From assembly GCA_030632085.1 (NCBI GenBank), contig DAOVJY010000001.1, forward strand, positions 2,125-66,124: DNA of 64,000 bases, written 5' to 3'. The notes beneath the pieces are model-generated. The model had not been told where the DNA came from, did no database searches, and was given only the letters and a program-made list of their open reading frames with translations. Source of the stretch: Candidatus Omnitrophota bacterium (GTDB lineage: Bacteria > Omnitrophota > Gorgyraeia > JAGLLT01). Positions 5,016-54,319 of this stretch are shown here, piece after piece. The position numbers were made by a program, and so were the translations under genes. Every line of letters starts with the position of its first letter. Position 1 is the stretch's first letter.

Positions 5016-5046
5016 AAAAAACCCGGAGTGGTCTCCGGGATATAAA
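5016..5046 (-). terminator. Intrinsic terminator hairpin, the expression platform of the FMN riboswitch
   Basis: Minus-strand cccggagaccactccggg stem followed by tttttttat, located between the riboswitch aptamer and the ribBA start. Confidence 0.55.
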
Positions 5047-5061
5047 TCAATACATTCTAAA

Positions 5062-5185: not shown

Positions 5186-5187
5186 GT

Positions 5188-5216
5188 ATAATATGTTATA
5201 ATCTTCAATCTGTCAA
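5188..5216 (-). promoter_or_regulatory. Putative sigma70-type promoter of the rib operon (TTGACA-17-TATTAT)
   Basis: Minus strand: TTGACA gattgaagattataaca TATTAT, ~8 nt upstream of the riboswitch. Confidence 0.35.
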
Positions 5217-5270
5217 TGGTTTTATTGTTTTTTTGTAGCTTGACTTTTTTGCGCGGCTTGTATACCATCA

Positions 5271-22951: not shown

Positions 22952-25267
22952 TCACCTCACTTTTTTTCGCATAGGTATGACAATCCTTTTACCTGGTTCT
23001 AAATAATAATCCTTCTCTTCATGCCTTAATTTGACTTGCTTACAGTGATTAACTCTACTAAATAAACGCGAAGATACCTCTATCTGCTTTTTATTTATCC
23101 TGAAATTTAAAACAAAATTCCTGTACCTAAATTTAAATTGTAACAATTTCCAGTGACTCGGCAAATTGGGCCTTAATTGAATGCCTAATTCATCAATCAC
23201 GATACCGCCAAAGCCCCTTATAACAACTTGGTATGTTCCCCCCAAAGAAGCTCCATGGACGCCATCGCCGGTATTACCGTGTTTATTTTGAATATCACTT
23301 AAAACAGAATATATAAAGTAAACATATGCCCTTAAATCATCCTCTATCCAGGATGCCACCGTGGCATGAACACTGGGGCTCAAAGAAGATTTGTGCAAAG
23401 TCCTCTCAACATAATAATAGTAATTCCTTTTAGTCTGTTCATGGGTAAAATTCTGCGGGAATAAAAAGAACAACATAACTACATCGGCCTGCTTCACAAA
23501 TTGAGTAGCTCCGATATTCTTTAAAGGTACCGCCTTGGGCGTGGCCGGAATAAAATCTCTTTCCCATTCGGATATAGTTATCGACTTTTTCTTAAAATAA
23601 CCGTCGAATTGTTCAATTAATTTATTCTTTTTTGAAAATTCAAAATAAATCTTCTGGCCGATTTTAAACCATGAGGCTACTTCTTTATCGGTTACCCCTA
23701 ATTTTTTCTTAATTCTTTTGAATCTGGCTTTGGCCTTTTTTCCATAGTAATCATTTAAAGCCACCGCGTACAATAAATTCCACTTAGCCATATAATTGGT
23801 AAAAGCGTTATTATTAACATTTATATGGAACTCATCAGGGCCAATGACTCCATTTATATCATATCTATCTTTGGCCTTATTATATGTAACTCTACTCGCG
23901 TAAAATCGGGCCGATTCAAAAACCATCTCTATGCCATATCTTAAAAGAAAATTTTCATCATTGGTGTGCAGGACATAATTGTAAATACTATAGGCGATAT
24001 CAGCCGAGATATGCTGTTCATAATCCTGGGTATGGATTTCAATAATCGTCCCGTCCAGATCCTTTGAATAACCGGGAGTTGTCTCAATTCCGGTAGCAGC
24101 AGACTCCCAGGGGAAAAGCGCCCCTTTGTAATTAAATTTCAGAGCTCTCCGGCGGGCATTATCAAGCCGGCGGTATCGATACAATAATAACTTCCTGCTG
24201 ACTTCAGGATTAGTCATATTAAAAAAAGGCATAATGAATATTTCAGTATCCCAGAATACATGCCCTCTATAACCTTCGCCGGAAAGTGTCTTGGCGGCAA
24301 CGCTGACATCTTTACTCCAACGCCCGGCCGCGATCAACAAATGATAAATGTTAAACCGTACCGCTTTTTGAATATCCTTATCACCCTGAATTACTACATC
24401 TGATTCTTTCCACAGTTGAGTCCAGACATTTTTATGCTCCCTTAAAAGCTTTTCAAATCCGCTTTTATAGGCATCTTTTACTTCCCGAGAAGAAACGGCC
24501 CTAATTTTTTTTCGGCTGATATGCCTTGAGGTATGAACTGTTATGTACTTAGTTAAAGTAACGCTGGCGCCCTTCTTTAAGAATAAGTTTTGAACTCTGC
24601 TATTAGCCAATTTCCGCTTTTGGCCGGACTTCATTGATAAAAGTGTCGAATACGCGATCCAGGTTTTATATGTATAACTACGCATGCATAGATAATTTAA
24701 TTTTGTTTCGCCATCAGCTTCAACAACTTTCACATGCCTCTTTCGCCCTTCCAATATCCCTCCCTGATTAGCTACCGAATCATCAATGCAATCCTGGATA
24801 ATCAGGTGCATAGGCGCGTTTACAGCCGTCAACTTAACCCTCATTATAATTAAATGGTGATTAGCATAACTTATAAACCTGGTCGATTCATAATTAATCT
24901 TTCTACCCCAGGCATCTTTATATAACGTATTTCTGTATAAGAGGCCGTTTTTCATATCTAAACAACGGCTATGCTTTAAAACCTTCATACTCCTGACATC
25001 TAATTTTTCACCTTCTGAAGCAATTCTCATATCCAATGGGTTAGGGAGATTAATTAACTCCTCAACCTGGGCAACACTCTTATCGAAAACTCCAGCTATA
25101 AAAGTCCCCGGAGTATAACCCTCAGGCGATTCTTCAAAAATTCCCCTAATTCCCATATAACTATTACCCAAGGTGAAAATAGACTCATAAGCTCTTTGGG
25201 TATCCGGGTTAAAATCATGCATTTTTTCTTCAATTATCCAGTCATTGCCGGAAAGTAACTTTTTCAT
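22952..25267 (-). CDS. Glycoside hydrolase family 65 disaccharide phosphorylase (maltose/kojibiose/trehalose phosphorylase-like)
   Basis: 771 aa with GH65 N-terminal beta-sandwich and central (alpha/alpha)6 catalytic domain. Adjacent beta-phosphoglucomutase is the classic partner. Confidence 0.8.
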   Translation of the reverse strand: MKKLLSGNDWIIEEKMHDFNPDTQRAYESIFTLGNSYMGIRGIFEESPEGYTPGTFIAGVFDKSVAQVEELINLPNPLDMRIASEGEKLDVRSMKVLKHSRCLDMKNGLLYRNTLYKDAWGRKINYESTRFISYANHHLIIMRVKLTAVNAPMHLIIQDCIDDSVANQGGILEGRKRHVKVVEADGETKLNYLCMRSYTYKTWIAYSTLLSMKSGQKRKLANSRVQNLFLKKGASVTLTKYITVHTSRHISRKKIRAVSSREVKDAYKSGFEKLLREHKNVWTQLWKESDVVIQGDKDIQKAVRFNIYHLLIAAGRWSKDVSVAAKTLSGEGYRGHVFWDTEIFIMPFFNMTNPEVSRKLLLYRYRRLDNARRRALKFNYKGALFPWESAATGIETTPGYSKDLDGTIIEIHTQDYEQHISADIAYSIYNYVLHTNDENFLLRYGIEMVFESARFYASRVTYNKAKDRYDINGVIGPDEFHINVNNNAFTNYMAKWNLLYAVALNDYYGKKAKARFKRIKKKLGVTDKEVASWFKIGQKIYFEFSKKNKLIEQFDGYFKKKSITISEWERDFIPATPKAVPLKNIGATQFVKQADVVMLFFLFPQNFTHEQTKRNYYYYVERTLHKSSLSPSVHATVASWIEDDLRAYVYFIYSVLSDIQNKHGNTGDGVHGASLGGTYQVVIRGFGGIVIDELGIQLRPNLPSHWKLLQFKFRYRNFVLNFRINKKQIEVSSRLFSRVNHCKQVKLRHEEKDYYLEPGKRIVIPMRKKVR

Positions 25268-25926
25268 ATATTTTTTTTGATTTTCTCCTCTATTAGAGCG
25301 ATATCAAGCTTACTGAAATCATTAATAACAATATCCGCGCCGCGCAAAATCTCAGGTTTATCAACCCGATCAACCCCCACGCACACCATGTTTCCGTTTT
25401 TAGCCGCTTCAACGCCTTTCTTGGCATCTTCAAAGACCACAGCATTTAAAGGATTGACATTTATCATTTTGGCCGCGTTTAAAAATATCTCCGGGTCCGG
25501 TTTTCCATTCTTAAATCCGTATCCGTCAATCACAGCATCAAATATTTTAAATATACCTATCTTATTTAGAATATCTTTGCAGTTTTTACTTGAAGAAGCT
25601 ACGGCAAGCATAAATTTGCCCTTCTCCAGGGAATCAATAAATTTAATTGCATCTTCATAAACATCAACATTATCATTAGTTAGAAGTTCTACAAAATAGT
25701 TTTGTTTTTTCTTTGCCGCCGCCTTTAATTCCTCATCTGTTAAATCTGTTAATATGGCTCCGGCCCCATCCAATCTGGGAATACCGTCAACCCTTTCTTT
25801 ATACATTTCAAACGTAAAATCAATACCATAACCGGCAAACATTTTTTTCCAGGCCTTGAAATGCAAAGGAACCGTATTGGTTATAACACCGTCCATATCA
25901 AAGATTAATCCAATTTTTGAACTCAT
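25264..25926 (-). CDS. pgmB: Beta-phosphoglucomutase (HAD superfamily)
   Basis: GLIFDMDGVITNT HAD motif I. 220 aa. Overlaps the GH65 gene by 4 nt. Confidence 0.8.
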   Translation of the reverse strand: MSSKIGLIFDMDGVITNTVPLHFKAWKKMFAGYGIDFTFEMYKERVDGIPRLDGAGAILTDLTDEELKAAAKKKQNYFVELLTNDNVDVYEDAIKFIDSLEKGKFMLAVASSSKNCKDILNKIGIFKIFDAVIDGYGFKNGKPDPEIFLNAAKMINVNPLNAVVFEDAKKGVEAAKNGNMVCVGVDRVDKPEILRGADIVINDFSKLDIALIEEKIKKNI

Positions 25927-28067: not shown

Positions 28068-28212
28068 AACAACGATTATTTATTTTGCAACTTAAATAAA
28101 AAAGGCGCTAACTTTTTATCAATCAGCACCTTTAACATTTGTCACATTTTTTGCTTATTTTTTTAGTTGCTTATAAACAAAAGCTTAACCCATTACAACT
28201 TTAACCTTATGC
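28068..28212. repeat. Direct repeat copy A (~145 bp) containing a degenerate terminator hairpin
   Basis: ~93% identical to 33903-34052 (aacgattatttattt..aaataaaaaaggcgctaactttttatcaatcagc.cctttaa..tttgtcacattttttgcttatttttt..ataaacaaaagcttaacccattacaactttaacctta). Confidence 0.7.
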
Positions 28213-28421
28213 GGTAAAAGTAAACCCCTCGCCTCACCTTTGTAAAAGAAATTCTGCAAGGTGGGAGATTGATTTTCTTTATCCGTTGCTTCTGCGAAGA
28301 AATCAAGAATGCGCTCAGATCTTTCTTTTTCTCCTTTTAAAATATATGCTATAGCTACTAAAGAATTATTGAAGGTTTGAAACTGACTTCCTTCCATAGA
28401 AGGGAGCAATTTCTTATCCAT
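28185..28421 (-). CDS. Hypothetical 78-aa ORF, probably a C-terminal remnant of a larger gene
   Basis: Its last ~8 codons and the downstream hairpin fall inside the duplicated 145-bp segment. No recognisable domain. Confidence 0.25.
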   Translation of the reverse strand: MDKKLLPSMEGSQFQTFNNSLVAIAYILKGEKERSERILDFFAEATDKENQSPTLQNFFYKGEARGLLLPHKVKVVMG

Positions 28422-28567: not shown

Positions 28568-28816
28568 CTAATTCGGAATCTCCCTTATTAAATGCTCGCC
28601 GGCACAAGCATAAACTATAGCAATATACCTAAAGGCCGGCGCGTACATACCACTTTGCCTGGCTTTAATATAGGGAGCATAACCCTCTCTCAAGGCAATT
28701 TTTTCAATCTTGCGTTTAAGAAGAAGGCCTACTCCGCCTCGATTATTGAGAGCTTTTGAGACTGCCGCGGGAGAAGCACCGGCCTCTCTCGCGATATCTT
28801 TAATTGTTACTGACAT
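28568..28816 (-). pseudogene. LacI-family regulator remnant (HTH domain only)
   Basis: MSVTIKDIAREAGASPAAVSKALNNRGGV... is a LacI-type HTH. The ORF stops after 82 aa. The ~300-aa periplasmic-binding-fold effector domain is absent: only ~145 nt remain before the next ORF. Confidence 0.55.
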
Positions 28817-28906
28817 AGATAAATCCTTTTTGTTAAAATTAACCTTTTAACCAACTTTTAATAGAATATTAACATATTCTATTCTCATATTGTAAAAAAA
28901 ATAAAT

Positions 28907-30151
28907 TCACTTCTCTAACTTTTCAAAACATCGAGCCCAGCCATACAAACCTACCTTTTCAACCTCTGATTGCTCTGGAAAAGAATTAGCCAAAACTAAA
29001 TAGCAATAGAGGGCTTTATTTAATGCTGTCTGTCTATTCTTGACTCTTGATTCATACTCTTTTGCGACCTCATAATACCATGAGGCGGAAAGTCTTCTCT
29101 CTTCACCTCTGGTTTCTATTCCTTCAATAAATGCCTCCGCCCATTTTAGCTTGCTTAAAGTAAGTGGAGCTGAGAGTTTACTTTGAAAATTCTCATTTAT
29201 TTTTTTCCTAATTTCCCGCCTAAAAGTCTCTACATCTCCGGACAAATCTCTATCATAAGCGGCAATCTCATAACAATAAAGCGCGATTTGAAAATCTCTC
29301 CAGCGCTCGGCGCCCATATCAGATTCCGCGGTTTCTAAATAGCTATTAGCCATTACTAAGTATCTCGTACAATATTCCTTTAGTCTGCTTTTACTATCAT
29401 CATCTTCACTTTTTATAAGATCTGCTAAATATGAATTAATCGCTTTTACCGTTTCGGCGGTATAGGGCACAAGAAATTCTCTTTTTTTAAGCTTTTCTTT
29501 GATCTCTTTCTCGGTCATCACAGGGGCAAAGATTAGTCTCTCTTTGCTTAATTCAATCATCTCTTGCAACTCTTCAAGCATACTGCTGTCCGGATATGCC
29601 TTAAGAGCTTCCTTAAAGATATTCAATGCTATTTTATATTTACCGTTATTATAATAATATAGGCCTATATCATACGCGCCTTTTACTTTTGCCTTATATA
29701 TCTTTTGAAGTTGAACATCAATTATTGCCGCGCATCTATTATCTAACTTTTTTGCTTTATCAAACTCTACGGCCGCGTAATCAAAGAGGTTTCTTTCCAG
29801 GCAAAAGAGGCCTAACCTATATTGGGCTTCCGCGTCATCCTGATCTATGCGAAGAGTCATCTTTTTATACAGCTCTTCGGGAGGAAGGAGAAGTCCGCCG
29901 CGGGGCTGCCTCTTTTTGATAGATTTGATATCTATTCGCTTAAAGGTATGGATCTTATTTTCCGACTTTACGGTAATACTACTGTCATTGCCGCTAATTA
30001 CCTCGCCCCTTATCTCTGCCCCGTCCTTAAGGACAATTATTTTTTCCGCGTATAGAAAGGTTGAGGTTAATATTATTGTAATCATGAAGATAAAACTACT
30101 TATCAATCCGCGCTTATACATCTTGCCTCTTTTTTTTATAAGTTTCGCCAA
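28907..30151 (-). CDS. Secreted TPR-like repeat protein with small N-terminal beta domain
   Basis: Signal/TM segment (LISSFIFMITIILTSTFLYA), then an IIVLKDG..I.G.VI..D....VK domain, then helical repeats including an internally repeated ~60-aa unit (ALYCYEIAA / ALYCYLVLA). Confidence 0.55.
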   Translation of the reverse strand: MAKLIKKRGKMYKRGLISSFIFMITIILTSTFLYAEKIIVLKDGAEIRGEVISGNDSSITVKSENKIHTFKRIDIKSIKKRQPRGGLLLPPEELYKKMTLRIDQDDAEAQYRLGLFCLERNLFDYAAVEFDKAKKLDNRCAAIIDVQLQKIYKAKVKGAYDIGLYYYNNGKYKIALNIFKEALKAYPDSSMLEELQEMIELSKERLIFAPVMTEKEIKEKLKKREFLVPYTAETVKAINSYLADLIKSEDDDSKSRLKEYCTRYLVMANSYLETAESDMGAERWRDFQIALYCYEIAAYDRDLSGDVETFRREIRKKINENFQSKLSAPLTLSKLKWAEAFIEGIETRGEERRLSASWYYEVAKEYESRVKNRQTALNKALYCYLVLANSFPEQSEVEKVGLYGWARCFEKLEK

Positions 30152-32358
30152 TATAAGACCCTTGTTGGCGGTAAATAGGTTATATACACATCCTCTAAGA
30201 CCGGCGTTTCTCTAAATTGCTGGTCACCCGGGTTATACCAGTACCAGCGATCACCCGGATAACTCTGGTTTGGGTCAATCTCAAAATTGGCTTTATACTG
30301 AATCTGGGTTCCTGTCAGGTTAACTGCTCCCTGTGTCTCTAAGCCGGGTTCAGCCGGACTCCAGTTTAAGCCGCCGTCTGTTGATAGTTGAAAATAAACC
30401 TTTTCAGTAGCCGAACTGGCACTGCTTGGAATAGTCACCGTGCCCCAAACCGCGCCCCACTCTACATCAGAATCAAAAGCGGCTGTTGGTAACTCGGTAG
30501 ATACAAAATGGGCATAATCTCCGTTGCCGTCAGGGCTTTTAGGAATTATCCTTATATTGTCAAAACGCGCCTGCACACCCCAACCCCAAAAACCAACCGC
30601 TCCGCTAATTACGCCCCCCACATTATCAGTTCTAAAGGAGCCCTTTAAACTATGGCTATTGTTTCTAAAATAGTACTTTACAGTTGAACCATCGCAGACA
30701 AACTTTACCCTCATCACCGTCCACCAATAATAATTAGGCCAAATAGTGGCGAAAGAGGAATGCCAAGGATACCATCTCTCGTGAGATGTGAAATGGAGAT
30801 GCCGCCACCAGGTTTCGTCTTTTATGCCTGATGCAAGAGTAGTCCTGTATGCAGGAAATGCTACATACCACGGAGGAGCGCCGCGGGCTCTACAACTACT
30901 CACACTATCTTCCTGTAAACTGTAAGAAAAGTCGGTCCATGTCATGCCGGATGAGGGGCTACTGCTTTCAAGCCAGACCGGACTCCAATAACTACCGGTT
31001 GTAAGCTCCAATTCTTTATCTGCTCCCGGCCTTAAGTCAGCATCTGTTATACTATACAAAGCTCCTCCCCATACATTTCCATCGGCACTTCCGGTGCCGC
31101 GTTTAGCCCAACTCGTATTGTTCATAAAAAAAAGAGCATTTTGCCCGCCTTCATCAAAATCATCCCAAAAACCTATCTTTATAGAGTCCGGGATAGTCTC
31201 AAAAGCGGACGAACCGCTATCATACAAAGTCTGTTGGTCTCCTCTTACCGGGCAATTATTAAGAGCGGTTACTTTCCAGGCAATAGGAAGCACAGCGCCG
31301 TCACTACCCTGAAAATCACTCTTCTTTGTCTGATTCTCGATGCCGTAGATATCTACAACCGCTTCTATCTTCTTCTCGGCAATTATTCTTATCTTCAAAG
31401 AGGTAGCATATAATATTCCTGTGGATGTCAGGGTGTATTTTCCTCCGGAATGAAAACAGAAGTCAGTTGTATAAGGAGAGGGTTTTAGCCTGTTGGGGTT
31501 AGCGTTGCTTTTAATATTATCTCTATCGCTGCTATTTAGAGGGGGAGTGGTTGTGACCATATTAATAAAATTATCAAATTTAGACCAGCTATCAAAAGAA
31601 TTGGTCTGTCTTTCAGCAATAATCTCATCTGCCAAACTATCTGCCCTCGGACCATTAATTACCCCTTCTAAAACCGCCTTTAATACTTCCTTTGAAGCAG
31701 TATTTATATTAATCGGGCATCTTGCCTCAGAACCGCCTGCGCTATTTATGGTGTTTGGATCCCGGTAAGAATAAATAGTAATGTCATTTTTGATGCTCTG
31801 ATAGACTGCGTCATCTATACCCGCGGCCCGCATGATCTGTTCTTTAGTTTCAAACGGACGAGCGCTAATAATCGCGTCCGCTCTTGTATAGTCGCCATCA
31901 CCCAGTAAACTCTTTAATAAATTCCTATTAACTTTATCTATATTTATCTTTCTCTGTTCATCTTCAATATCTACCGAGTAAAAACCGCGATTCACGCAAA
32001 GAGTACCGTCTGAATAATTACTTATGCTGCCCGTATAAATAAAGTTAACCTTGCCGTCAACCTTTAACCGGCTGATGGCATCGTTAATACCCGCCTCAGC
32101 TAAATATGTAGCTTTAGCGCCATTTATATAATTTGATGCAATAGCGTGCCCTAAACGCGCGTTTACAACAACAGCAAGGCAAATAAGCGTAAGAATTCCT
32201 AAAATACCTACGGTTAGTATTAATACATATCCTCTGCTATTATTTGCCTTTGTCATCATATCAACCTCAGTCAGGTCACGGTCAAAATCACTTATTTCTA
32301 AAATTATTCCCTTAACGCTCAAATAAAAAATCAAGACACTCGCTAAAAGAATTAACAA
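30136..32358 (-). CDS. GspK/PilX-like minor pseudopilin fused to a C-terminal beta-jelly-roll (LamG/DUF1080-like) domain
   Basis: Likely true start near 32259 (MMTKANNSRGYVLILTVGILGILTLICLAVVV hydrophobic pilin-like helix, then YLAEAGINDAI as in PilX_N/GspK). INTASKEVLKAVLEGV resembles the GspK helix-hairpin-helix. The ~450-aa Trp-rich C-terminal region ends in a ...ARFDNIRIIP jelly-roll motif. Confidence 0.55.
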   Translation of the reverse strand: MLILLASVLIFYLSVKGIILEISDFDRDLTEVDMMTKANNSRGYVLILTVGILGILTLICLAVVVNARLGHAIASNYINGAKATYLAEAGINDAISRLKVDGKVNFIYTGSISNYSDGTLCVNRGFYSVDIEDEQRKINIDKVNRNLLKSLLGDGDYTRADAIISARPFETKEQIMRAAGIDDAVYQSIKNDITIYSYRDPNTINSAGGSEARCPININTASKEVLKAVLEGVINGPRADSLADEIIAERQTNSFDSWSKFDNFINMVTTTPPLNSSDRDNIKSNANPNRLKPSPYTTDFCFHSGGKYTLTSTGILYATSLKIRIIAEKKIEAVVDIYGIENQTKKSDFQGSDGAVLPIAWKVTALNNCPVRGDQQTLYDSGSSAFETIPDSIKIGFWDDFDEGGQNALFFMNNTSWAKRGTGSADGNVWGGALYSITDADLRPGADKELELTTGSYWSPVWLESSSPSSGMTWTDFSYSLQEDSVSSCRARGAPPWYVAFPAYRTTLASGIKDETWWRHLHFTSHERWYPWHSSFATIWPNYYWWTVMRVKFVCDGSTVKYYFRNNSHSLKGSFRTDNVGGVISGAVGFWGWGVQARFDNIRIIPKSPDGNGDYAHFVSTELPTAAFDSDVEWGAVWGTVTIPSSASSATEKVYFQLSTDGGLNWSPAEPGLETQGAVNLTGTQIQYKANFEIDPNQSYPGDRWYWYNPGDQQFRETPVLEDVYITYLPPTRVLYWRNL

Positions 32359-32625
32359 TTACCGCGTGTCTTCTCATTCTTCACTTCCGCTTTTTGCAAC
32401 CTTAGCGTGATTATCTAAAGTATATCTTATATAATAAAAAAATTCAAGAGCTATCATAACTTATGTCAAGCCAAAGTTAAAATGTTCCCTTTTTAATAAA
32501 CTATAATGAAATCTCAAAAGAGGCATTATCTCAGCGGGAGGCATGATCGTAATGAAGCGAAAAGAGGTTATTTCTATTTTCTTAACTGCAGAAGGCTTTT
32601 ATTTTCTTCACTTGATAATCGCTCT

Positions 32626-32952
32626 TCACACTCGAATCTTTGCTTCAATAAGACCGCTGCCTAAAATACTTCCAATGTAAGCGCTTTTAGCAATTTGATA
32701 ACAGTATAAGGCAACTCTTAAATTTTTTTGTTCTTCTTTTTGAGGCGATTCGCGATCTTTCATCTTAGCGTTAAACTCGTCGCCCATATAATAATATCTG
32801 CCATAACATGAACTTCTCTCAGTTTCACACTCTAATTTTCTAATAAATATGATTATGGCATCCCTGTCTGATTTAGAATAAGGAATCAGGAGATCTCCTA
32901 TTTTATTTTTTTCCGCGTATTTTCTAATACTTACAATCTTCTGTTGAGCCAA
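32626..32952 (-). pseudogene. Truncated paralog of the C-terminal repeat unit of the TPR-like protein at 28907-30151
   Basis: LIPYSKSDRDAIIIFIRKLE...RVALYCYQIAKSAY aligns with LTLSKLKWAEAFIEGIE...KALYCYLVLANSF. Additional out-of-frame repeat-unit fragments lie at 32953-33190. Confidence 0.4.
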
Positions 32953-33193
32953 AGCGTTAGTCTGCGGATATTGGGCGGTTTTATGAGCTATGTTATAGCA
33001 AAAAAGGGCGATATCCGGTTTTTTGTTATTCCTTGCCTGAAGCCTTTTTATCGGCGCCTTTTCTAAATAGCTGCCTAACTCTATGTATCTCTGGGCATAC
33101 TCTTATTTTAATTCATTATTACTTAGGCCATTAATAACCTTTATTATTACCTCCGCGTCTTTACGGCTATAAGGTATATGTAGGTCACCTTTT

Positions 33194-33628
33194 TTAATGT
33201 CTTGAGTTACTCTGATAGGCCGCGTCATCTATACCCGCGACCTGCCTTATCTGCTCCTTAGTCACAAGCGGATAAGCGGCAATAATCGCGTCCGCTCTTG
33301 TATAGTCGCCATCCCCCAACAAACTCCTTAAAAGGTTTCTGTTGGCATCATCTAAATTAACCTTCCTCTGCTCATCTTCAATAACCACGGTATAAGAACT
33401 AACGCCATCTAAAAACTGCTCGACTCCATTAATAGAAATATTGCTATCAGAATAGTCAAATTTAAGTTTAGCATCAGCCCTTAACAGGCTAATGGCATCA
33501 TTAATACCCGCCTCAGCTAAGTATTTAGCTTTAGCTCCATCCATATATACAGCCACCTCATTCTGCTCTAAGCGCGTATTCATAGCAAAAGAGAGGCTGA
33601 TAAGCGTAAGCACAGCTAAGATGCCCAC
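33194..33628 (-). pseudogene. Truncated paralog (N-terminal ~140 aa) of the GspK/PilX-like protein
   Basis: YLAEAGINDAISLLRADAKLKF...VVIEDEQRKVNLDDANRNLLRSLLGDGDYTRADAIIAAYPLVTKEQI matches the 740-aa protein. DNA 33215-33665 is ~75% identical to 31800-32255. Confidence 0.5.
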
Positions 33629-33902
33629 GGTTAATATTAAAGCAATACCGGGCTTATTGTTATTTGTTAAAAGAATATTTTTTATCGTTTTCTCCTGGTA
33701 TAAAGTTCACCCTATACAGATAGAATAATTCGCTCTTATGGCCCGCCCGAAGCGGAAACAATTGAAATGACTTATTATTAAAATAATTTAGGAGCAATTA
33801 AATGTTTTATCAAACAATCAAAAAAAGGGTTTAATAATATCATGATCCTATTCATCTGTCAATAATAAATTATTAACTTTTGATAGTAAATTTTTGCTTC
33901 CT

Positions 33903-34052
33903 AACGATTATTTATTTCGCGACTTAAATAAAAAAGGCGCTAACTTTTTATCAATCAGCGCCTTTAATATTTGTCACATTTTTTGCTTATTTTTTTTAGT
34001 TGTTTATAAACAAAAGCTTAACCCATTACAACTTTAACCTTATACGGTTTTT
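33903..34052. repeat. Direct repeat copy B (~145 bp) with intact terminator hairpin downstream of the 662-aa gene
   Basis: Same sequence as 28068-28212. Minus strand: aggcgct-N15-agcgcct stem followed by TTTTTT. Confidence 0.7.
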
Positions 34053-34096: not shown

Positions 34097-36085
34097 TTAA
34101 GGCCGGGGCCGCTTAATAGAATCTACCAGCTCTAAGGTACCCAGTTTGCTGCATCCCTGCTGATTTATAAAATACCATGTAAGTTTAGCCGTCGCTGAAC
34201 CATCGCAATCATCTAAGTCATTAACCTTGGGACAAAGCCCCATAATCAAACCAACCCTTGGTTCAACTTTAAGAAACTCCCATTTTATAGCGGCTTCAAT
34301 AATATAACCGTTTTCGGTTTCAAGAAAGGCAAGCTTAATGTTATCTCCTATTTCCTGCCTCTGGAACCATGCCAAGGCCTGGGGTTTTTTATCTTTGCCG
34401 GATATAGTCAGGCCTATCTGGAAATCAAGCGGATTACCCCAAATTAATTTATTATTCTCAGGATCAATAAAAAGTTCAATGGTGTCATTGCGATATATCA
34501 TATTATCCTTATAGAAACTGAGTATCTGATTATCGGTTACTTTAAAAGCCGCGTAAAAATAATCATTATCCCACATAAACATACAATCACTTAATAAATC
34601 CTTATCTCTATCCGTAAGGTTGCCGTACTCCAGGTGTTGTTTTGGCTCTAACGCGATACATTCCGCGTGAGACCATTCGCTAAGTTTGCCGTCAATAAGC
34701 ATGCCTTGCGAGGTTTTAACAGCTAATATTCCGGGAACATCAGGTAACGCAACAACCTTAGAGCCGGGCTTAAAACCTATTTCCATAAGTGACTTTTGGA
34801 TGTCTTCATTTCTCATAAAATAATCCCAGAGCATTCCTGACCTGGCGTTTTCTATTCCTAAGATCATAGCACCTACATCAATTCCAATTACATCCTTCGC
34901 GTACCAATTACGAGTTACATTATAAGCGTCTGAAAAACCATACTTACCCCATATTTTATCCCCATGATTATCATACATAAACCTGAGGGCCGAAATAGAT
35001 TCTTCGGGAGTAAACATCATTGAGCCCGCGGCCGCTGTAGGGGCTACAGTCCCATCATGAACAGCCAGTCTCGTAGCCGGCGGGGCACCATACACCTTAT
35101 AACCTCCCGGGCCGTCACAAGCCGTCAAGCCCCAGGAGTCTTCTCCGTAAGACTTGTAACTTTTAGAATTATTAACGCAAAATTCTCTGTTAGCTAAAGT
35201 AGCTATTGTTGAATTCGCGTAGTAATCCGCGTATTTATCATGAATACCTCTTAAGTCAACCCAGAGCTGAGGAAACTGATGAGTAAATAAAGGTGAACAG
35301 ACAATACAGGTATATCCTTTATAACTTCTTATAGGGCGGTTAATCTCATCCCAGGCCGCGGCCGCGATAGGATAAGTCGGTGATCCAATTGCTAAAATAT
35401 AGCACAATATACCTTCGTTGTAATGATTCCAGCGAGCCATAAGCATTTTACCTCTATGATCCCAACCCATACTTAGGGTCCTGCCGCCAGCCAACATCCA
35501 CTGCCAGTCAGCTCTGTTGTAAAGTTCATTAGCTATCTCTTCAACTTCAGTACCTTTATAATACTCAGCGGCAGTTAAGGCGCCCGCTAAAAATATAGCT
35601 GTATCCATGGAAGATCCTTCTGAATTTGGTAAATGCCGGCCTGTATCCATGTGAACGAAATGGTAATAAAACCCGTGATTGCTTTCCATTTCATCCCGAA
35701 AATATTTAAGGGTACTTAAGACTCTTTCGTAAGCGGCTTTCTTGCTTACCCAGCCCCTTTCCTGAGCCACACAAATGGCACCCAAGCCATAACCTACGGA
35801 GGCCACAGACGCAATTTTCCTATCATCGGAAAAATTAAAATTATCAGCCCTGTCTTTAATTAAACCTGTTTCGGGATTAGCTTCATTCCATATAAAGAGA
35901 AAACACTTTTTTTGGACCATATCCAAAAATTCATCATCGCTCATAACTGAAACATCCGGTTTTGTAATCTCCGTAACCGGCTTAGGACGAGGAGCGGCGC
36001 AACCAAAAATTAGGGATACCGCAAAACATAAAATTGCCAATAACATTAAACCTAATTTATCCCGCTTCATTAAAAATCTCCTCAT
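34097..36085 (-). CDS. Glucoamylase-like (six-hairpin, putative beta-glucan/beta-1,2-glucanase-type) lipoprotein with C-terminal CBM9/DOMON-like domain
   Basis: Lipobox LIFGC. FIWNEANPETGLIKDR...GYGL..A...A..RGW region shared with the 855-aa paralog at 60454-63021. C-terminal IDGKLSEW... sugar-binding-like domain. Family assignment is by motif memory only. Confidence 0.55.
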   Translation of the reverse strand: MRRFLMKRDKLGLMLLAILCFAVSLIFGCAAPRPKPVTEITKPDVSVMSDDEFLDMVQKKCFLFIWNEANPETGLIKDRADNFNFSDDRKIASVASVGYGLGAICVAQERGWVSKKAAYERVLSTLKYFRDEMESNHGFYYHFVHMDTGRHLPNSEGSSMDTAIFLAGALTAAEYYKGTEVEEIANELYNRADWQWMLAGGRTLSMGWDHRGKMLMARWNHYNEGILCYILAIGSPTYPIAAAAWDEINRPIRSYKGYTCIVCSPLFTHQFPQLWVDLRGIHDKYADYYANSTIATLANREFCVNNSKSYKSYGEDSWGLTACDGPGGYKVYGAPPATRLAVHDGTVAPTAAAGSMMFTPEESISALRFMYDNHGDKIWGKYGFSDAYNVTRNWYAKDVIGIDVGAMILGIENARSGMLWDYFMRNEDIQKSLMEIGFKPGSKVVALPDVPGILAVKTSQGMLIDGKLSEWSHAECIALEPKQHLEYGNLTDRDKDLLSDCMFMWDNDYFYAAFKVTDNQILSFYKDNMIYRNDTIELFIDPENNKLIWGNPLDFQIGLTISGKDKKPQALAWFQRQEIGDNIKLAFLETENGYIIEAAIKWEFLKVEPRVGLIMGLCPKVNDLDDCDGSATAKLTWYFINQQGCSKLGTLELVDSIKRPRP

Positions 36086-36090: not shown

Positions 36091-36168
36091 GTTTATTTCT
36101 TGCTTCTTGCTTGTGCCTTTAAACTTGTGTCTTGTGACTTATTTCTTGTGACTGGTGACTTGTTTATT
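36091..36168. repeat. CT/GT-rich degenerate tandem tract
   Basis: cttgcttcttgcttgtgcc...cttgtgtcttgtgacttatttcttgtgactggtgacttg, directly upstream of the minus-strand gene at 34097-36085. Confidence 0.6.
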
Positions 36169-36527: not shown

Positions 36528-36810
36528 CTATGTCTAAAGTCTGTTTTTGTTTTTTTGTTTCTTGTCTCTTGTTTTTTGTTCTTTTTTTTGTTTTTGCTTT
36601 GTGCTTTTACTATGAGCCATCAGCTAAGAGCTACTTGCTTTTTGTTTTTTTGCTTTTTCTATCCGCTATCCGCTCTTCGCTGACAACTGATAACTGATAG
36701 TTGTAAGCTCTATGCTTTTTTGCTTTTTGTTTTTTGTTTTTGCTTGTGCCTTGTGCCTTGTGACTTGTGACTTGTTTCTTGTGACTTGTCTCTTATGACT
36801 TTATACTTGA
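36528..36810. repeat. Long CT/GT-rich degenerate tandem tract with embedded agccatcagcta / atccgctatccgctc motifs
   Basis: ttgtttcttgtctcttgttttttg...cttgtgccttgtgccttgtgacttgtgacttgtttcttgtgacttgtctcttatgactt. Confidence 0.65.
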
Positions 36811-36849: not shown

Positions 36850-39800
36850 TTATCTATTAAAAAAAGTCATAAAACCGCTTGAATTCCGCCCATTTTTTTT
36901 AACTGTAGCATGTCCCGCGATTTTTTCCCAAAAATCATCAATTATAGCATATATACAAGGAAGAACGATTAAAGTGAGAGCCGTAGCGCACATAATACCC
37001 CAAACAATAGTCAAAGCTAGGGGCTTCAAAAAAGGATCACCTCCGCCAATGCCATAAGCAACCGGTATTAATCCGAAAACTGTTGTAACGGTTGTTAAAA
37101 TAACCGGCCTGAGCCTTAATTGCCCGCCTTCAATAATTGACTTCCCGCGCTCTACACCTTGCCGCCTGAGACGATTTATAAATTCAACCAAAACGATAGA
37201 ATCATTAACCACAATTCCGGTTAAACCGATAAAACCAACCATCATAAAAAATCCGAGCGGTAAACCATGAAAAAAGAAGGCCCAGATAACTCCAATGAGC
37301 CCAAAGGGTATAGCCATCATAACAATGAAGGGTTGAATCATTGAATTAAACGTCGCGGCTAAAATCATAAATATCAAAAATAATGCCAAACCAAAAGCTA
37401 AAATAAAATACTTAGCAACGTCTTCATTTTCCTTTTGCTCGCCACCGTAAGTTACATCATAACCGGGATATTTATTCTCTACACCGGTAAACTCTTTAGC
37501 TAGCATTTTATTAGCCGCGACTGATGTAATATTTTTATTATCTACATTGGCTCTAACAGTTATAACACGTTTACCGTCTAAGTGGCTAATTGACGATACC
37601 GCCTTTTTTTCTTTTAGGTGAGCAACTTTCTTTAGCGGTATCAGGTGGCCATATTGGTTAGGAATCATTATTTTATCAAATAAATTCTTATCAGTTCTTA
37701 ATTCCTCCGGAAACCTGACAACAACATCGATTTCTTCTTCAGCCTTAGTAGGTTTAATGGATGTAGCTACTCCTCCTTTAAAGGCAAATCTTACTGATGC
37801 GGCGATATCCTCTATAGTTACATATGAACTGGCAGCCGCCTTTTCATCAACAACCACCTGTATTTCTTTTCGCCCAACTTCGTGTGTATTTTGAACATCG
37901 GAAACACCTTTAATTGTGCCTAGATATTTCATAATTGACTCTGCTATTTCATTTAGAATTTCAAAGCTCTCACCCCTTATCTCAACAGCAATAGCCATAC
38001 CCACCGGAGGGCCTTCCTGCTCTTTTTCAAAATAAAGGTTATTGAACCCTTCTACGCGAGCCATTTGCGGCCTTAAGGCCTCAATTATCTCAGATACACT
38101 TTTAGACCTCTCCGTATAAGGTGTTAAATAAACAGTTACCTGAGCAACATGAGACCCGCTTTTACCATATTCATCAAACATCCAACTCTGGCCCATCATA
38201 CCTACCTGAGTAGTGTAAGACGCAAGTTGAGCTTCAGGCATTTCGGCAATCATTTTCTCAACCTGCTCTATTAATTCATTGGTCTTACTTAGAGGAGTAC
38301 CTACCGGAGCCTCTGCCCTTATATAGAACTGCTCAATACCTTCTTCAGAGCCAAAAAGGACAAAATTCATTAAAAAAGCTAAAACAAAGGTAGCGATTAG
38401 GGCCATAAATACACCGCCAATAACCCAATAACGCTTATTCAGCGCCTTTTTTAACACCCGCGTATAAAACTTAAGCAAATGCCTAAACCAGTGTGACTCT
38501 TTTTTAGAATCCAACTTACCTTTCTTGGGCACTTTTATAAAATCGGTAAAATGTGAAGGCAAAATTATAAGAGCCTCCAATAACGAAGCCACCAAAGCAA
38601 TGATTACTACCGCGGGTATATTTTTTAAGAACTTGCCCATCATGCCCGGAAAGAAAAATAAAGGAAAAAATGTGGCAATAGTGGTTAATACAGCTGTAAT
38701 AACCGGTTTCAAAACTTCATTCGTTCCTTTTATAGCGGCATCTCTGGGGCTATATCCCTTCTCAACATAACGTGAGCAGTTTTCAGCTACAATAATACCG
38801 TCATCAACTACCATACCCAAAACAATAATTAAACCAAACATACTTATGAGATTAATGCTAATTCCCAGGCAAGCCATAATTGTTACGGTAGCGGCAAAAG
38901 CAATTGGTATGCCCAAAGCAGTTAATAACGCGGTTCTGTGGTTTAGGAAAAACATAAGCACACAAATAACTAAAATAAAGCCTACGATTCCGTTATTCTT
39001 TAACACACCGAGGCGCCGCTTGATATAATAAGACAAATCATCAATATATGATACCCGGAGATTTTCATCTTCACGGCTTATAAATTCTTCGGTTCGCCTT
39101 ACAGCCTCATCGACTATCGTGACCGCGTCTCCGCTTGAACGTTTTATAACCGTCAGAGCAATCGACCTGCTGCCGGAGCTTTTATTAATGATATCCTCAT
39201 CCTCAAAAGTAAACTTAACTTTAGCAACATCTTTAATCTTAAGCGCGTTACCCAAATCATTAGCCCTGATGATAACATTTTCTATCTCATCCAAAGTAAA
39301 AAATTCACCCGTTGTTCTAATGGTAATTTCTTCAGCGCCTCTAATTTTACCGGCCGGTATACTGACATTCCTTTTACCTAAGGCATTCATAACCTCCCGC
39401 AAACTTACATGTACTTCCTTTAGTTTAGCGGGATCGATCTCGATCCAGACTTCCCTATCTCGCCAGCCGGTCCTGGAGATTGAAGACACACCCGGAACAT
39501 CCTCTATTTCATCTTCTAAGCGCTCAGCGATGCCCTGTAGTTTTTCTTCACTCATCTGCCCGCTTAAAACGATTTTAACAATGGGAATTACACCTGAAGT
39601 AATTTCTGTAACAATAGGCTCTTCGGCATCATCAGGCAAACCGGTTACTCTATTAATTGCCTGCTCTATATCATCAACTACCTTATCTTTATCTTTTACA
39701 TCCTGGCTAATATCCAGTTGTATTGAAGAAACATTATCAATTGAGCTGGATACCATGGTTTCAATACCATCAACACCTTTAAGCTCTTTCTCCATAGGTA

Positions 39801-39999
39801 CTGTAACTAACTTCTCCACTTCTTGGGGAGCCGCTCCGGGATAAACTGTCTGAACAATAACCATATCAAAAGATACTTCAGGAAAGGCCTCACGCCTGAT
39901 ATGATAAACATAGATAGTAACCAGGCCCGCGATAATTATAAATATTGATATAAGATTAACGAGTAATGAATGCCTGACTGAAAATTCTGATATTTTCAT
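36850..39999 (-). CDS. RND-family efflux transporter (AcrB/HAE1-like)
   Basis: 1049 aa, 12-TM RND architecture with two large periplasmic loops. Adjacent TolC-like gene. Confidence 0.9.
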   Translation of the reverse strand: MKISEFSVRHSLLVNLISIFIIIAGLVTIYVYHIRREAFPEVSFDMVIVQTVYPGAAPQEVEKLVTVPMEKELKGVDGIETMVSSSIDNVSSIQLDISQDVKDKDKVVDDIEQAINRVTGLPDDAEEPIVTEITSGVIPIVKIVLSGQMSEEKLQGIAERLEDEIEDVPGVSSISRTGWRDREVWIEIDPAKLKEVHVSLREVMNALGKRNVSIPAGKIRGAEEITIRTTGEFFTLDEIENVIIRANDLGNALKIKDVAKVKFTFEDEDIINKSSGSRSIALTVIKRSSGDAVTIVDEAVRRTEEFISREDENLRVSYIDDLSYYIKRRLGVLKNNGIVGFILVICVLMFFLNHRTALLTALGIPIAFAATVTIMACLGISINLISMFGLIIVLGMVVDDGIIVAENCSRYVEKGYSPRDAAIKGTNEVLKPVITAVLTTIATFFPLFFFPGMMGKFLKNIPAVVIIALVASLLEALIILPSHFTDFIKVPKKGKLDSKKESHWFRHLLKFYTRVLKKALNKRYWVIGGVFMALIATFVLAFLMNFVLFGSEEGIEQFYIRAEAPVGTPLSKTNELIEQVEKMIAEMPEAQLASYTTQVGMMGQSWMFDEYGKSGSHVAQVTVYLTPYTERSKSVSEIIEALRPQMARVEGFNNLYFEKEQEGPPVGMAIAVEIRGESFEILNEIAESIMKYLGTIKGVSDVQNTHEVGRKEIQVVVDEKAAASSYVTIEDIAASVRFAFKGGVATSIKPTKAEEEIDVVVRFPEELRTDKNLFDKIMIPNQYGHLIPLKKVAHLKEKKAVSSISHLDGKRVITVRANVDNKNITSVAANKMLAKEFTGVENKYPGYDVTYGGEQKENEDVAKYFILAFGLALFLIFMILAATFNSMIQPFIVMMAIPFGLIGVIWAFFFHGLPLGFFMMVGFIGLTGIVVNDSIVLVEFINRLRRQGVERGKSIIEGGQLRLRPVILTTVTTVFGLIPVAYGIGGGDPFLKPLALTIVWGIMCATALTLIVLPCIYAIIDDFWEKIAGHATVKKNGRNSSGFMTFFNR

Positions 40000-40014
40000 G
40001 AGTTTTTCTTAATC

Positions 40015-41493
40015 TTACTCTGTTATTTTTATTAAATCATCCGTATCTAAATTAATTATAATATTATTTTTGGCTAATTCAAGCTCTATCCTGGAAACGC
40101 GGTATTCAAGGTATGACGCGGCCAGTGACATCTGCGCGTTTAGTAAATCATTTTGGTATCTTATTAAGATGTCTGAGTTTGATCTGCCGTATTTAGCTCT
40201 TTTTTCTTCGGCTATAAGTTTCTCGGCCTGCAATCTTACAATCTCTTCCCATCTTCGTATTTTCTCCGCGTCAATATTGACCCGTCGAACTCTAATATTT
40301 AATTCACTCGCAATCTCAACTTCCAGTTTTTTTAAGTTGATAAGCGCCTTTTCCTTCAAAAGAACCGCTTGCTTCTTTTGTGCCGCGGCGCTTCTGTTCT
40401 CTAAGGGCATACTAATACTAACTCCTAGATAATATTCAGAATTGTCTTTATCCGCGATATCTTTCAATGACCCCTTGCCGTCGGTGTCTATACCGTTTCT
40501 CTCGTATGTGGCCACCAGATCAATTTCCGGCCAGAGATTATTCTTCTTTATAACCAAATTTATATCTTGAGCCTCAACATTTTTTAAGGCTGCCCGATAA
40601 TCTCTTCTTTTGGCCACGGCATCTTTTAAGTGCGCAATATAATCAGCATTTGTATATGAAGTTACAAGGCTTTCGCTGGGCTTTATGATTTCGCCGGTAT
40701 CAATATTCAACTTAACCTTCAAGAGATTAGAGGCATTAACTATGTTATTTTGGGCTATTTCATAATGTATATTGCTAATGTTAAGGTTAGCTTCACTGGC
40801 ATAGAGATCCGGCTCCTCAGCAATTCCCCTATCAAATCTATCCTGATATATTTCATAAAGATGCTCGGCTCTCTTGAGCATATTATAATTAATCCCTGCC
40901 GCTTTATAAGTATAAACTAAATTCCAATAAGCAATTTCGCAATTAGCCAATGAAGCTTCTATCTTATTTAAACTATCCAGGCTTGCTTGTTCGTAGTTTA
41001 AAGTAGTTATCTTTACATTTCCCCTGTCTTCTAAACCAAAAAAGTTTTTACCCAAAGACTGCCTAATGGTAACTTTTGCCGATGACTCATATGAAGGGCT
41101 GATTATTACCAACTTCGAATCAGAATAGTCTCTTTGGTGAATAAAGTCGGCTTCAATCTTTGTACCGGTAGGAAGTTTTTTACTAATCCCGAAGTTATAC
41201 TCCGTTTCAGTAGATTTACTGGCTGAAGAACTGCTCACTGAGACTAACTCATCATCAGTATAACCGCCGCCGGCTTCAATTAGAATATCAAAAACCGACT
41301 TAGCGCTTTCTATGCTCGCTTTGGAATACTCGGCATCTATTTTAGCTAATTTAATATCTAAATTATTAGCTATAGCTAATTTTAGAGCGTCATCTCTTGA
41401 TAGCTCTATATTCAGATTTTCTGCTCGCGCAAAAATAGGGCAAGCGCAAAATAAGAATATTATGGATACGTATATATATTTTTTAAGGCTCAT
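40015..41493 (-). CDS. TolC-like outer membrane efflux protein
   Basis: 492 aa with signal peptide and duplicated OEP repeats. Upstream of the RND gene on the same strand. Confidence 0.8.
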   Translation of the reverse strand: MSLKKYIYVSIIFLFCACPIFARAENLNIELSRDDALKLAIANNLDIKLAKIDAEYSKASIESAKSVFDILIEAGGGYTDDELVSVSSSSASKSTETEYNFGISKKLPTGTKIEADFIHQRDYSDSKLVIISPSYESSAKVTIRQSLGKNFFGLEDRGNVKITTLNYEQASLDSLNKIEASLANCEIAYWNLVYTYKAAGINYNMLKRAEHLYEIYQDRFDRGIAEEPDLYASEANLNISNIHYEIAQNNIVNASNLLKVKLNIDTGEIIKPSESLVTSYTNADYIAHLKDAVAKRRDYRAALKNVEAQDINLVIKKNNLWPEIDLVATYERNGIDTDGKGSLKDIADKDNSEYYLGVSISMPLENRSAAAQKKQAVLLKEKALINLKKLEVEIASELNIRVRRVNIDAEKIRRWEEIVRLQAEKLIAEEKRAKYGRSNSDILIRYQNDLLNAQMSLAASYLEYRVSRIELELAKNNIIINLDTDDLIKITE

Positions 41494-41574
41494 TTTATTT
41501 ACCTATGCCGTTATATAAAACATTGTACATAAAGTAACTATATCATTTATTTACTATGAAATCAAATGAAGAGA

Positions 41575-41652
41575 AAGCAAGACACAAGACACAAGACACA
41601 AAACACAAGTCATAAGTCATAAGTCATAAGTCACAAGCAAAAAACAAAAAGC
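41575..41652. repeat. AC-rich degenerate tandem tract (same family, opposite orientation)
   Basis: gcaagacacaagacacaagacacaaaacacaagtcataagtcataagtcataagtcacaagc on the plus strand, upstream of the plus-strand MATE gene. Confidence 0.65.
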
Positions 41653-53487: not shown

Positions 53488-53958
53488 TTATCGAGTTTTT
53501 TTTATATTTTTAAAACGTGGTAATATTTTATAAGCATCAAAATTATACCACATTCTATAGAATAATGAATATGGTAAAAAAGCTTTTCGAAAGGTGCTAT
53601 CAATAATCAGGTGCCCCAACATCCCCAAAGAAAGGGCCATGGAATACTTGCCCCACCCAAAAAAGAGGCCCGTTATATAAATTAATATAATTAATTCCCA
53701 AGAATGAAAATATACATATATTTTTCCTGATTTTAAATAACCGATAAAAACAAACTTTTTTAAATCAAATTTAAATCCGTAATGGCTAAAGTAATCTATG
53801 AAGTGATCTAAATCTATTAAAATACCGCCAATTACCACCAGAACAACCAATATAAAGCTTGAATAAAATTTGTATATCAATAATGATAATATTGATGTTA
53901 CGATTAAATGAGTTGATAAATCAACGGCAAGATGCTTATATTTATTAGTGCTAATCAA
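53488..53958 (-). CDS. Membrane-bound metal-dependent hydrolase, YdjM/DUF457 family
   Basis: 156 aa, 4-5 TM, conserved His residues (HLAVD..., GHLIIDS). Confidence 0.55.
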   Translation of the reverse strand: MISTNKYKHLAVDLSTHLIVTSILSLLIYKFYSSFILVVLVVIGGILIDLDHFIDYFSHYGFKFDLKKFVFIGYLKSGKIYVYFHSWELIILIYITGLFFGWGKYSMALSLGMLGHLIIDSTFRKAFLPYSLFYRMWYNFDAYKILPRFKNIKKTR

Positions 53959-54292: not shown

Positions 54293-54319
54293 GACGTTCG
54301 CCTTCGCTCACTCTAAGAA

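Follow-up and report, generated by a model that had tools for sequence, protein, structure and literature searches.

Organisation of the locus

A pair of adjacent genes and the decayed remains of a second pair of the same kind are found in a 64,000-nucleotide stretch of DNA, here called the window, from a Candidatus Omnitrophota bacterium (GenBank assembly GCA_030632085.1, contig DAOVJY010000001.1, positions 2,125 to 66,124). The first gene of each pair encodes a GspK-type protein (K) and the second its partner (P). The intact pair consists of K_A (30136–32262, minus strand), a GspK-family minor pseudopilin of 708 amino acids (aa) whose open reading frame (ORF) reaches back to a TTG at 32358, and P_A (28907–30121, minus strand), a partner of 404 aa starting with the ATG at 30121 as in the public gene call P0022. 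Taking this ATG and the ATG at 32262 as the likely starts, the two genes are 14 nt apart. The decayed pair lies upstream of the intact one in the direction of transcription. It comprises the K_B remnant (33209–33667, minus strand), which preserves the leader and the opening ~150 codons of a second gene for a GspK-like protein, and the P_B remnant (32626–33210, minus strand, in a frame different from that of K_B), which is the C-terminal half of a second partner gene. The four ORFs in which the initial annotation had recognised two such pairs are all present and all on the minus strand, as is every gene between 22 and 41 kb of the window.

The order of transcription is a gene for a 662-aa Glycoamylase/CBM9 protein, the K_B remnant, the P_B remnant, K_A, P_A, a LacI helix-turn-helix (HTH) remnant and a 78-aa fragment, followed further downstream (3′) by NT5C, GT4, a HAD/beta-phosphoglucomutase-like gene and a GH65 gene. 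An AT-rich spacer of 470 bp separates the gene of the 662-aa protein from the K_B remnant, and a spacer of 360 bp lies between the P_B remnant and K_A. The homologues of K_A and P_A all come from metagenome-assembled genomes (MAGs) of Omnitrophota.

The GspK-type protein and its additional modules

K_A is a GspK-family minor pseudopilin with two added modules, predicted to be beta-sandwiches, of which the first, in the middle of the protein, is variable. All its parts are encoded on the minus strand: the leader and alpha1 helix (aa 1–72; 32262–32047), the GspK core with its HhH alpha-domain (aa 73–315; 32046–31318), the variable beta-sandwich (aa ~325–580; 31290–30523) and a conserved Asp-box beta-sandwich (aa 581–708; 30522–30139). 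The GspK-like character proposed in the initial annotation for a 740-aa form of the protein is borne out by Pfam T2SSK (PF03934; 34.3 bits, above the gathering score of 24.2), which is also matched by 15 of 17 homologues, by HHH_3 (31.2 bits, cut-off 27) and by the predicted structure described below. The leader, read from the sequence as MMTKANNSRG|YVLILTVGILGILTLICLAVVV, has the prepilin form of a short basic stretch up to a Gly followed by ~20 hydrophobic residues, and a full-length alignment of K_A with 16 homologues shows conservation of both the Gly and the hydrophobic tract. Position +5 is Leu in K_A (G|YVLIL) and Ile, Met, Val or Leu in the homologues, without the Glu5 whose absence from GspK has been restated in the literature (PMC9934059). 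The match of K_A to Pfam PilX_N is weak (E 0.35), and seven of the 17 homologues hit this model; N_methyl (IPR012902) gave no Pfam match in K_A at E up to 1, and a motif of the G-F-T-L-I-E type occurs in no ORF of the window.

An AlphaFold2 (AF2) model built from 17 sequences (predicted local distance difference test score, pLDDT, 74; predicted template modelling score, pTM, 0.77) begins with an N-terminal helix of 64 residues, continues with an alpha/beta core that includes an alpha-domain and extends to about residue 315, and has ~23 beta strands after residue 327. In the part that corresponds to the GspK core the pLDDT is ~75–94. The three best PDB matches of the model in a Foldseek search are the XcpX (GspK) chains 9a1f_T, 6utu_C and 5vtm_X (E 2e-7 to 1.5e-6, probability 1.00, template modelling (TM) score 0.61–0.63 normalised to the target). 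They are followed by ConA-like, galectin-like, DUF1080 and CBM66 sandwiches and by reelin repeats (probability 0.9–1.0, E 5e-5 to 1e-2). At the level of sequence the only PDB match of K_A is the HhH of ComEA (E 1.6e-8).

The protein does not end in ARFDNIRI, as had been supposed. This strand is followed by a further sandwich of ~125 residues with an Asp-box-like STDGGLNW motif and weak matches to BNR and Reelin_subrepeat-B. Mean pairwise identity in the K family is lowest in the middle module (29.5 %, vs 41–45 % elsewhere); the last module is conserved, and the N-terminal and core parts are among the most conserved. At the position of the middle module other family members carry Laminin_G_3, matched by one of the 17 homologues, or PA14. 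A lectin-like nature of the middle module of K_A is moderately supported, on the evidence of its predicted fold.

The exported partner

P_A is predicted to be an exported protein in which a small Sm/SH3-like barrel precedes a solenoid resembling tetratricopeptide repeats (TPR). Its N-terminal hydrophobic helix, with a signal-peptidase site LYA|EK that is plausible by reading, would serve as a Sec-type signal or anchor. In the AF2 model (nine homologues aligned; pLDDT 86, pTM 0.79) a five-stranded barrel of the Sm/SH3-like type is formed by aa 27–70, and aa 75–403 are all-alpha and arranged as a TPR-like solenoid with a pLDDT of ~90. The C-terminal GLYGWARCFEKLE motif is conserved in the family. 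The best PDB fold matches of the solenoid are TPR proteins (CTPR, NlpI, BamD, P58IPK), at E 1.8e-3 or weaker and with low TM scores. As a family label, the TPR of the initial annotation is not sustained by Pfam, since all TPR models stay under their cut-offs (TPR_16 28.7 vs 32.7; TPR_2 25.5 vs 27) and the match covers one repeat only (aa 158–190). The barrel has a weak Hfq-like fold match and scores 30 bits against NCBIfam Lepto_7_Nterm (cut-off 43).

Elsewhere in the window, an ORF of 118 aa (53954–54307, minus strand) reaches 47 bits with Lepto_7_Nterm. It also matches positions 7–76 of the hidden Markov model (HMM) of the partner family and carries the same small N-terminal beta-barrel as P.

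A second pair of different descent

The initial annotation had regarded the second copy as a tandem duplicate of the intact pair, an interpretation that has to be given up. Its closest relative is an intact pair on the 4.2 kb metagenome contig L009, in which K has at least 732 aa and the partner 371 aa; towards its neighbour in the window, the K part is 66 % identical in nucleotides (nt) and the P part is without a DNA match. A fragment of 144 aa does match the N-terminus of K_A (57 % aa identity, E 4e-49), as stated earlier, but the DNA identity of ~75 % given for it was measured as 72.3 % over 452 nt (33195–33640 vs 31779–32223). This remnant is a mosaic. Its 5′ part (33661–33356) is of the L009 type, with 81 % nt identity to L009 and 66 % to K_A, and the following 147 nt (33355–33209) are of the K_A type, with 80 % nt identity to K_A and 42 % to L009.

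The 108-aa ORF (32626–32952) is the tail of the P_B remnant. As had been reported, it matches the repeat unit of the partner, although weakly and in two internal units of P_A (27–28 % identity, E 2e-5 and 5e-5). The remnant is longer than this ORF: 193 codons in one frame (33210–32632), with an in-frame TAA at 33105–33103, correspond to aa ~161–353 of a 371-aa partner and align end-to-end with the C-terminal half of the partners of other genomes. In tblastn it is 69 % identical in aa to the L009 partner (p371), 41 % to that of L002 (p365) and 38 % to that of L003 (p370). Compared with the DNA of P_A it gave no match, and in aa it is ~30 % identical to P_A, as the L009 partner is (30 %).

By sequence comparison, the decayed pair thus belongs to a different paralogue lineage and is orthologous to the intact L009 pair. 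Since it is closer to L009 than to K_A/P_A, two old paralogue lineages stand in tandem here, and the arrangement is no fresh duplication. The rival account, in which a K-P pair was recently duplicated in tandem and one of the copies then decayed, can point to the common order and strand, to the 72 % nt and 57 % aa identity of the K N-termini and to the 147 nt (33355–33209) that are 80 % identical to K_A. It is made very improbable by the P_B half (74 % nt and 69 % aa identity to the L009 partner, no DNA match to P_A), by the 5′ part of K_B with its 81 % to L009 vs 66 % to K_A, by a synonymous divergence (dS) of 0.6 even in the K_A-like stretch, and by the existence of an intact orthologue of the decayed pair in L009. 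A recent gene conversion from K_A into K_B over the same 147 nt was also considered and rejected, because the dS of 0.6 between this stretch and K_A is as large as the divergence between genomes. The stretch reflects either an old recombination between the paralogues or a change on the side of L009, in whose lineage this part would have been replaced.

The two remnants abut at ~33205–33215 (minus strand), where about codon 155 of K_B is joined to about codon 161 of P_B in a different frame, with the microhomology CCTAxCAGxxTAAC at the joint. The decay therefore comes down essentially to one internal deletion plus one nonsense codon. L009 matches the window in two pieces, 521–868 with 33703–33356 (81 % nt) and 3330–4153 with 33217–32387 (74 % nt), and the window lacks the 2.46 kb that L009 has between them; measured against the intact L009 pair, the deletion amounts to ~2.3–2.5 kb. 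The ratio of non-synonymous to synonymous substitution rates (dN/dS) of the remnant compared with L009 is 0.19–0.21 (P_B 0.21), which argues for a history mostly under constraint and for a deletion that is recent relative to the divergence from L009.

The K_B lineage has no ATG, GTG or TTG before its prepilin-like leader, neither in the window (33640–33700) nor in L009 (540–620). For this reason the public gene call P0012 begins inside the hydrophobic helix. ATA or ATT stands at the expected start site of the lineage, behind a good AGGAG/GGGAG site. The ATA of K_B, at good spacing from AGGAG, was examined as a lost ATG and rejected, as the intact L009 has ATA/ATT there; the absent canonical start is common to both and is therefore no lesion of K_B. 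A feature of the lineage or a rare start codon is possible. That the anatomy of the two cassettes and their mode of decay are as described here is very likely.

Related loci in Omnitrophota

A scan of GTDB species representatives gave 140 relatives, of which 79 loci were kept and classified by tblastn and HMMs. In most of them the partner ORF lies directly downstream of K, and the type of partner co-varies with the type of K. The pairing, which the initial annotation had taken to be conserved, thus extends over dozens of related loci. In L001 (K 45 % identical), L002 and L003 the pair stands inside an operon resembling those of type II secretion systems (T2SS) and type IV pili (T4P), with the order GspE-GspF-GspG-(H)-I-J-K-P-PilM/N fusion-two unknowns-TPR protein-two secretins, and no K besides the one in K-P was called in these three loci. 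The same position between gspJ and the PilM-PilN fusion is found in L001, L002, L003, L015-17, L020, L021, L024-26, L032, L036, L037 and L090. The description of the pseudopilin as an orphan is therefore true at the locus studied here, but its orthologues fill the gspK slot of complete T2SS/T4P-like operons. P0040, on a contig of 466 kb, was considered as belonging to the machine of this genome and rejected because it belongs to another sample.

Tandem arrangements are not confined to the window. K-P-K-P occurs within the operon of L020 and L025, and arrays of the type J-K-P-P-K-P-K are present in L066 and L070. At 6–18 kb of L020 and L025, three K and two partners stand in a row (J-K-K-P-K-P-PilMN), and in the loci L066, L070 and L074, of the J-K-P-P-K-P-K type, ATPase and platform genes are absent. 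Orphan K-P pairs are numerous, and some genomes have 5–7 loci.

The neighbours of the orphan pairs include many genes of sugar utilisation: GH130, ROK, PEP-CTERM, an ABC transporter and LacI in L004; GH2 with F5/8 type C domains in L005; LacI and PEP-CTERM in L014; CBM11/PEP-CTERM upstream and GH26 + CBM9 and GH94 downstream in L023; GH94 and GH9 + CBM30 in L043; GH26 in L049. The window, with its CBM9 and GH65 neighbours and its remnants of LacI and of an L014-type lipoprotein, fits this pattern of orphan sugar loci.

A profile search of the K family against 1.84 billion cluster representatives yielded 522 clusters (at 50 % identity) with E 1e-30 or better, and nearly all of the best 150 are 650–1040 aa long. 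Genes of the family are mostly annotated without a name or plainly as 'GspK', and the partner family has no name.

In L090 (1327–5988) a 990-aa PA14 protein and a 557-aa protein with a beta-helix match are encoded between gspJ and the K-P pair; they are possibly further bulky tip-associated components. The gene after the PilM-N fusion matches Pfam Amuc_1100 in L002 (8758–9510) and L090 (11651–12406), and its copy in L001 (9220–9972) gave no Pfam match.

Surroundings of the two cassettes

Two direct repeats of 146 bp, of which there are only two copies in the window, bracket both K-P cassettes together with the LacI and lipoprotein remnants. The upstream copy (33903–34048) and the downstream copy (28071–28215) are 95 % identical, lie 5.8 kb apart and contain a terminator-like hairpin with a 13-bp stem. 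Insertion or recombination could have set the limits of the island at these repeats. A scan for promoters and terminators was not above shuffled expectation, this repeated hairpin being its one useful result, and an Rfam scan of 27–42 kb gave no match.

Inside the repeats, an 82-aa remnant of a LacI-family regulator (28568–28816, minus strand; Pfam LacI 38 bits, and tblastn) retains only the HTH. Full-length LacI genes stand alongside K-P cassettes in eight related loci. The 78-aa remnant (28185–28421, minus strand) is 66 % identical to an internal part, in the middle, of the 566-aa lipoprotein gene that directly precedes K in L014. Next to the island on its upstream side lies the gene of the 662-aa protein (34097–36085, minus strand), with Pfam 'Glycoamylase' (PF10091), CBM9 and a lipoprotein-type signal read from the sequence; downstream follow the GH65 phosphorylase-type gene and the HAD (beta-phosphoglucomutase-like) gene (22952–25926, minus strand). 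The block from 28.1 to 34.0 kb is a partly decayed sugar-utilisation island, in which the decay is not confined to cassette B.

In the close relative L008 (77–86 % nt identity; 1–6762 aligned to 28906–31929 and 38087–41513 of the window) the K_A-P_A cassette stands directly upstream of OEP-AcrB genes. In the window the OEP-AcrB genes are 4.5–9 kb off and on the other side, upstream of the island on the same strand. Either the cassette or its surroundings have therefore been rearranged. The intergenic spacers around the OEP-AcrB genes contain heptamer tandem repeats (CTTGTGA/ACTTGTG x6–8 and CAAGACA x8.6, at 36123–36163, 36743–36801 and 41578–41637), and pieces of ~50 nt of these spacers match intergenic DNA of L008 and L009 at 84–87 %.

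Proposed function and rival explanations

Because K retains a GspK core that matches XcpX and its relatives fill the gspK slot, K_A is read as a tip-type subunit. In the mechanism proposed, the leader of K would be cut by the prepilin peptidase, and the GspK core would join the GspI/J-like minor pilins of a T2SS/T4P-like machine whose genes lie at another site in the genome. K would thereby cap the filament, and its extra modules would project from the tip. P would bind the variable module of K, either as a periplasmic chaperone or adaptor or as an accessory docked at the tip, and different cassettes would give one machine different tips, matched to the glycans of the neighbouring genes. We infer the processing, the tip location, the binding of P to K and the binding of glycans. 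For the explanation as a whole, a decayed sugar island with two tandem tip cassettes in which K sits at the filament tip together with P, the chances are about even, and for the tip-lectin mechanism by itself they are slightly less than that. That a single T2SS/T4P-like machine is retargeted by exchangeable, locus-encoded tip cassettes, one per polysaccharide-utilisation-like or prey-glycan locus, is a rather unlikely extension. If true, it would give Omnitrophota a filament-borne analogue of the surface glycan-binding proteins in the polysaccharide utilisation loci (PULs) of Bacteroidota, with cassettes being gained, shuffled and lost as in the window.

Several results weigh against a lectin-bearing tip subunit. 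With the NCBIfam equivalog T2SS_GspK (NF037980) K_A reaches 32.6 bits at a cut-off of 130, and the alpha-domain part alone aligns. The LamG/DUF1080-like C-terminal domain of the initial annotation survives as a beta-rich extension with ConA-like and DUF1080 fold matches, but not as a sequence match to either family: Pfam Laminin_G_3 and DUF1080 gave nothing in K_A at E up to 1, a profile of the sandwich region found no match among PDB sequences, and hhalign of the region to the Laminin_G_3-bearing homologue P0017 returned a probability of 0.2 %. Confidence in the sandwich part of the model is medium to low, and the pLDDT of residues 453–516 falls below 50. The partner is without an informative structural relative, no PDB structure reaching E 1e-3 in the Foldseek search with P_A. 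Besides K-P the 64 kb window contains no T2SS, T4P or pilin genes (E, F, G, I, J, L, secretin), in agreement with the statement of the initial annotation that none are nearby, and a search for PilM-N found no homologue on the public contig of 413,928 bp that carries identical P0001/P0022. Finally, the LacI and lipoprotein remnants around it suggest that cassette A may be on the way out too.

The main rival keeps the same anatomy and sees in it a secretion adaptor for each sugar locus instead of an adhesin: the modules of K, together with P, would recruit the exo-enzymes of the locus (GH + CBM9, PEP-CTERM/CBM) to the secretin of a T2SS whose filament is a short periplasmic pseudopilus. T2SS tip complexes are thought to contact their substrates. 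The operon is indeed T2SS-like (GspE, F, G, I, J, K, a GspL-like PilM-N fusion and secretins), secreted GH/CBM proteins directly flank the orphan cassettes, and P weakly resembles the periplasmic TPR adaptors NlpI and BamD. However, short PilT-sized ATPase-like matches in some of the related operons suggest retractile pili, and a bulky tip with ~400 extra residues would be more usual in adhesive pili, for example those with CofB or S. sanguinis PilC (PMC6048534, PMC9934059), so that a cargo selector is considered unlikely. Still less probable is a K that belongs to no filament at all and acts with P as a glycan-binding protein of the envelope, independently of T2SS/T4P and with its pilin-like N-terminus as a membrane anchor. 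The many orphan pairs far from machine genes and the missed cut-off of the GspK equivalog would agree with this. Yet K keeps a full GspK core that matches XcpX beyond the helix, its N-terminal and core parts are the most conserved, and close relatives with 45 % identity are encoded in the gspK slot, flanked by gspJ and pilMN.

That cassette A is itself a functionless relic in which lesions have yet to accumulate is equally improbable. Remnants lie all around it (cassette B, the LacI HTH, the lipoprotein fragment) and there are no machine genes nearby; against this, K_A and P_A are full length compared with their orthologues and keep Shine-Dalgarno-like sites and the tight 14-nt coupling. In addition, their dN/dS values of 0.28 (K_A vs its L008 orthologue) and 0.27 (P_A), at a dS of ~0.66, indicate purifying selection and argue that the cassette is in use. 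Least probable of all is a tip for DNA uptake, in which the ComEA-like HhH of K would bind DNA as part of a competence pilus. The HHH_3 score above cut-off and the HhH of ComEA as sole PDB sequence match are in its favour. An HhH-like alpha-domain is, however, standard in GspK and is covered by the T2SSK and XcpX matches, and the neighbouring genes belong to carbohydrate metabolism and include none for competence.

Omnitrophota are uncultured, nano-sized and thought to live attached to other cells or to prey on them. If the tip-subunit interpretation is true, a family of more than 500 clusters would provide them with a concrete recognition device for their targets or substrates. It would also extend the idea of the modular pilin to the GspK tip subunit of diderm systems.

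Comparison with known systems

Genes of giant adhesins are known to have T2SS-like loci next to them in Omnitrophota (10.1101/2023.11.21.568195; 10.64898/2026.06.07.730766); the literature on this phylum mentions such loci and does not describe the K-P pair. K_A has in common with GspK/XcpX (5vtm, 6utu, 9a1f), the minor pseudopilin at the tip of T2SS, a prepilin-like leader lacking Glu5, a long alpha1 helix and a pilin core into which an HhH-type alpha-domain is inserted, and its orthologues are placed after gspJ in T2SS-like operons. It differs in the ~390 extra C-terminal residues that form two beta-sandwich modules, in the partner gene between K and the GspL-like gene, and in the many paralogues per genome, orphans included. 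The machine of the related loci has a likeness in the PVC group: the Omnitrophota PilM-N proteins are 26–29 % identical to 'Amuc_1101 family PilM-like' proteins of Akkermansiaceae and, together with the Amuc_1100 match, this suggests that the machine is homologous to the pili-like cluster Amuc_1098-1102 of Akkermansia. We know of no GspK-lectin/partner pair in that cluster.

A minor pilin with a lectin-type domain is known from CFA/III pili of enterotoxigenic Escherichia coli (ETEC), where CofJ, a secreted product of the CofB operon, docks into the lectin site of CofB (PMC6048534). K-P resembles CofB-CofJ and the analogous TcpB-TcpF in combining a putative tip minor pilin that has a lectin-like domain with an exported non-pilin partner of the same operon. 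That system is, however, of type IVb; P is related to CofJ neither in sequence nor in fold, and the same applies to the modules of K and the H-type lectin of CofB. In PilX-PilY1 of type IVa pili, too, the gene of a GspK-equivalent minor pilin precedes that of a tip-associated non-pilin protein, a role that P would have here, but P is small (~400 aa), helical and without a beta-propeller, unlike PilY1. Several alternative tip sets for one machine, as proposed for K-P, are found in the Kil Tad pilus of the predator Myxococcus, where interchangeable minor-pilin tips changed the range of targets (PMC12075869); these tips belong to a Tad system and have no sequence relation to K-P.

The PilC protein of S. 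sanguinis consists of a pilin, an Ig-like and a ConA-like lectin module and is stabilised by PilA (PMC9934059, PMC8179133). Similar to PilC-PilA, a sandwich or lectin-type module would sit on a minor pilin that fits only at the filament tip, with a second protein encoded in the locus whose binding, shown for PilA, is proposed for P. Carbohydrate binding is a proposed role in both cases. Unlike PilC, which is a short N-methyl pilin, K is of the GspK type and would belong to a diderm T2SS/T4P-like system, and unlike PilA, P is predicted to be a Sec-exported TPR-like protein and no pilin. Modular type IV pilins have been defined by an N-terminal pilin module joined to a module without a specific role in pilus biology (Raynaud et al. 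2021, PMC8179133), and K_A joins a GspK core (aa 1–315) to two beta-sandwich modules (aa ~325–708). The modular pilin is an already established concept (PMC8179133), of which K-P is a variant.

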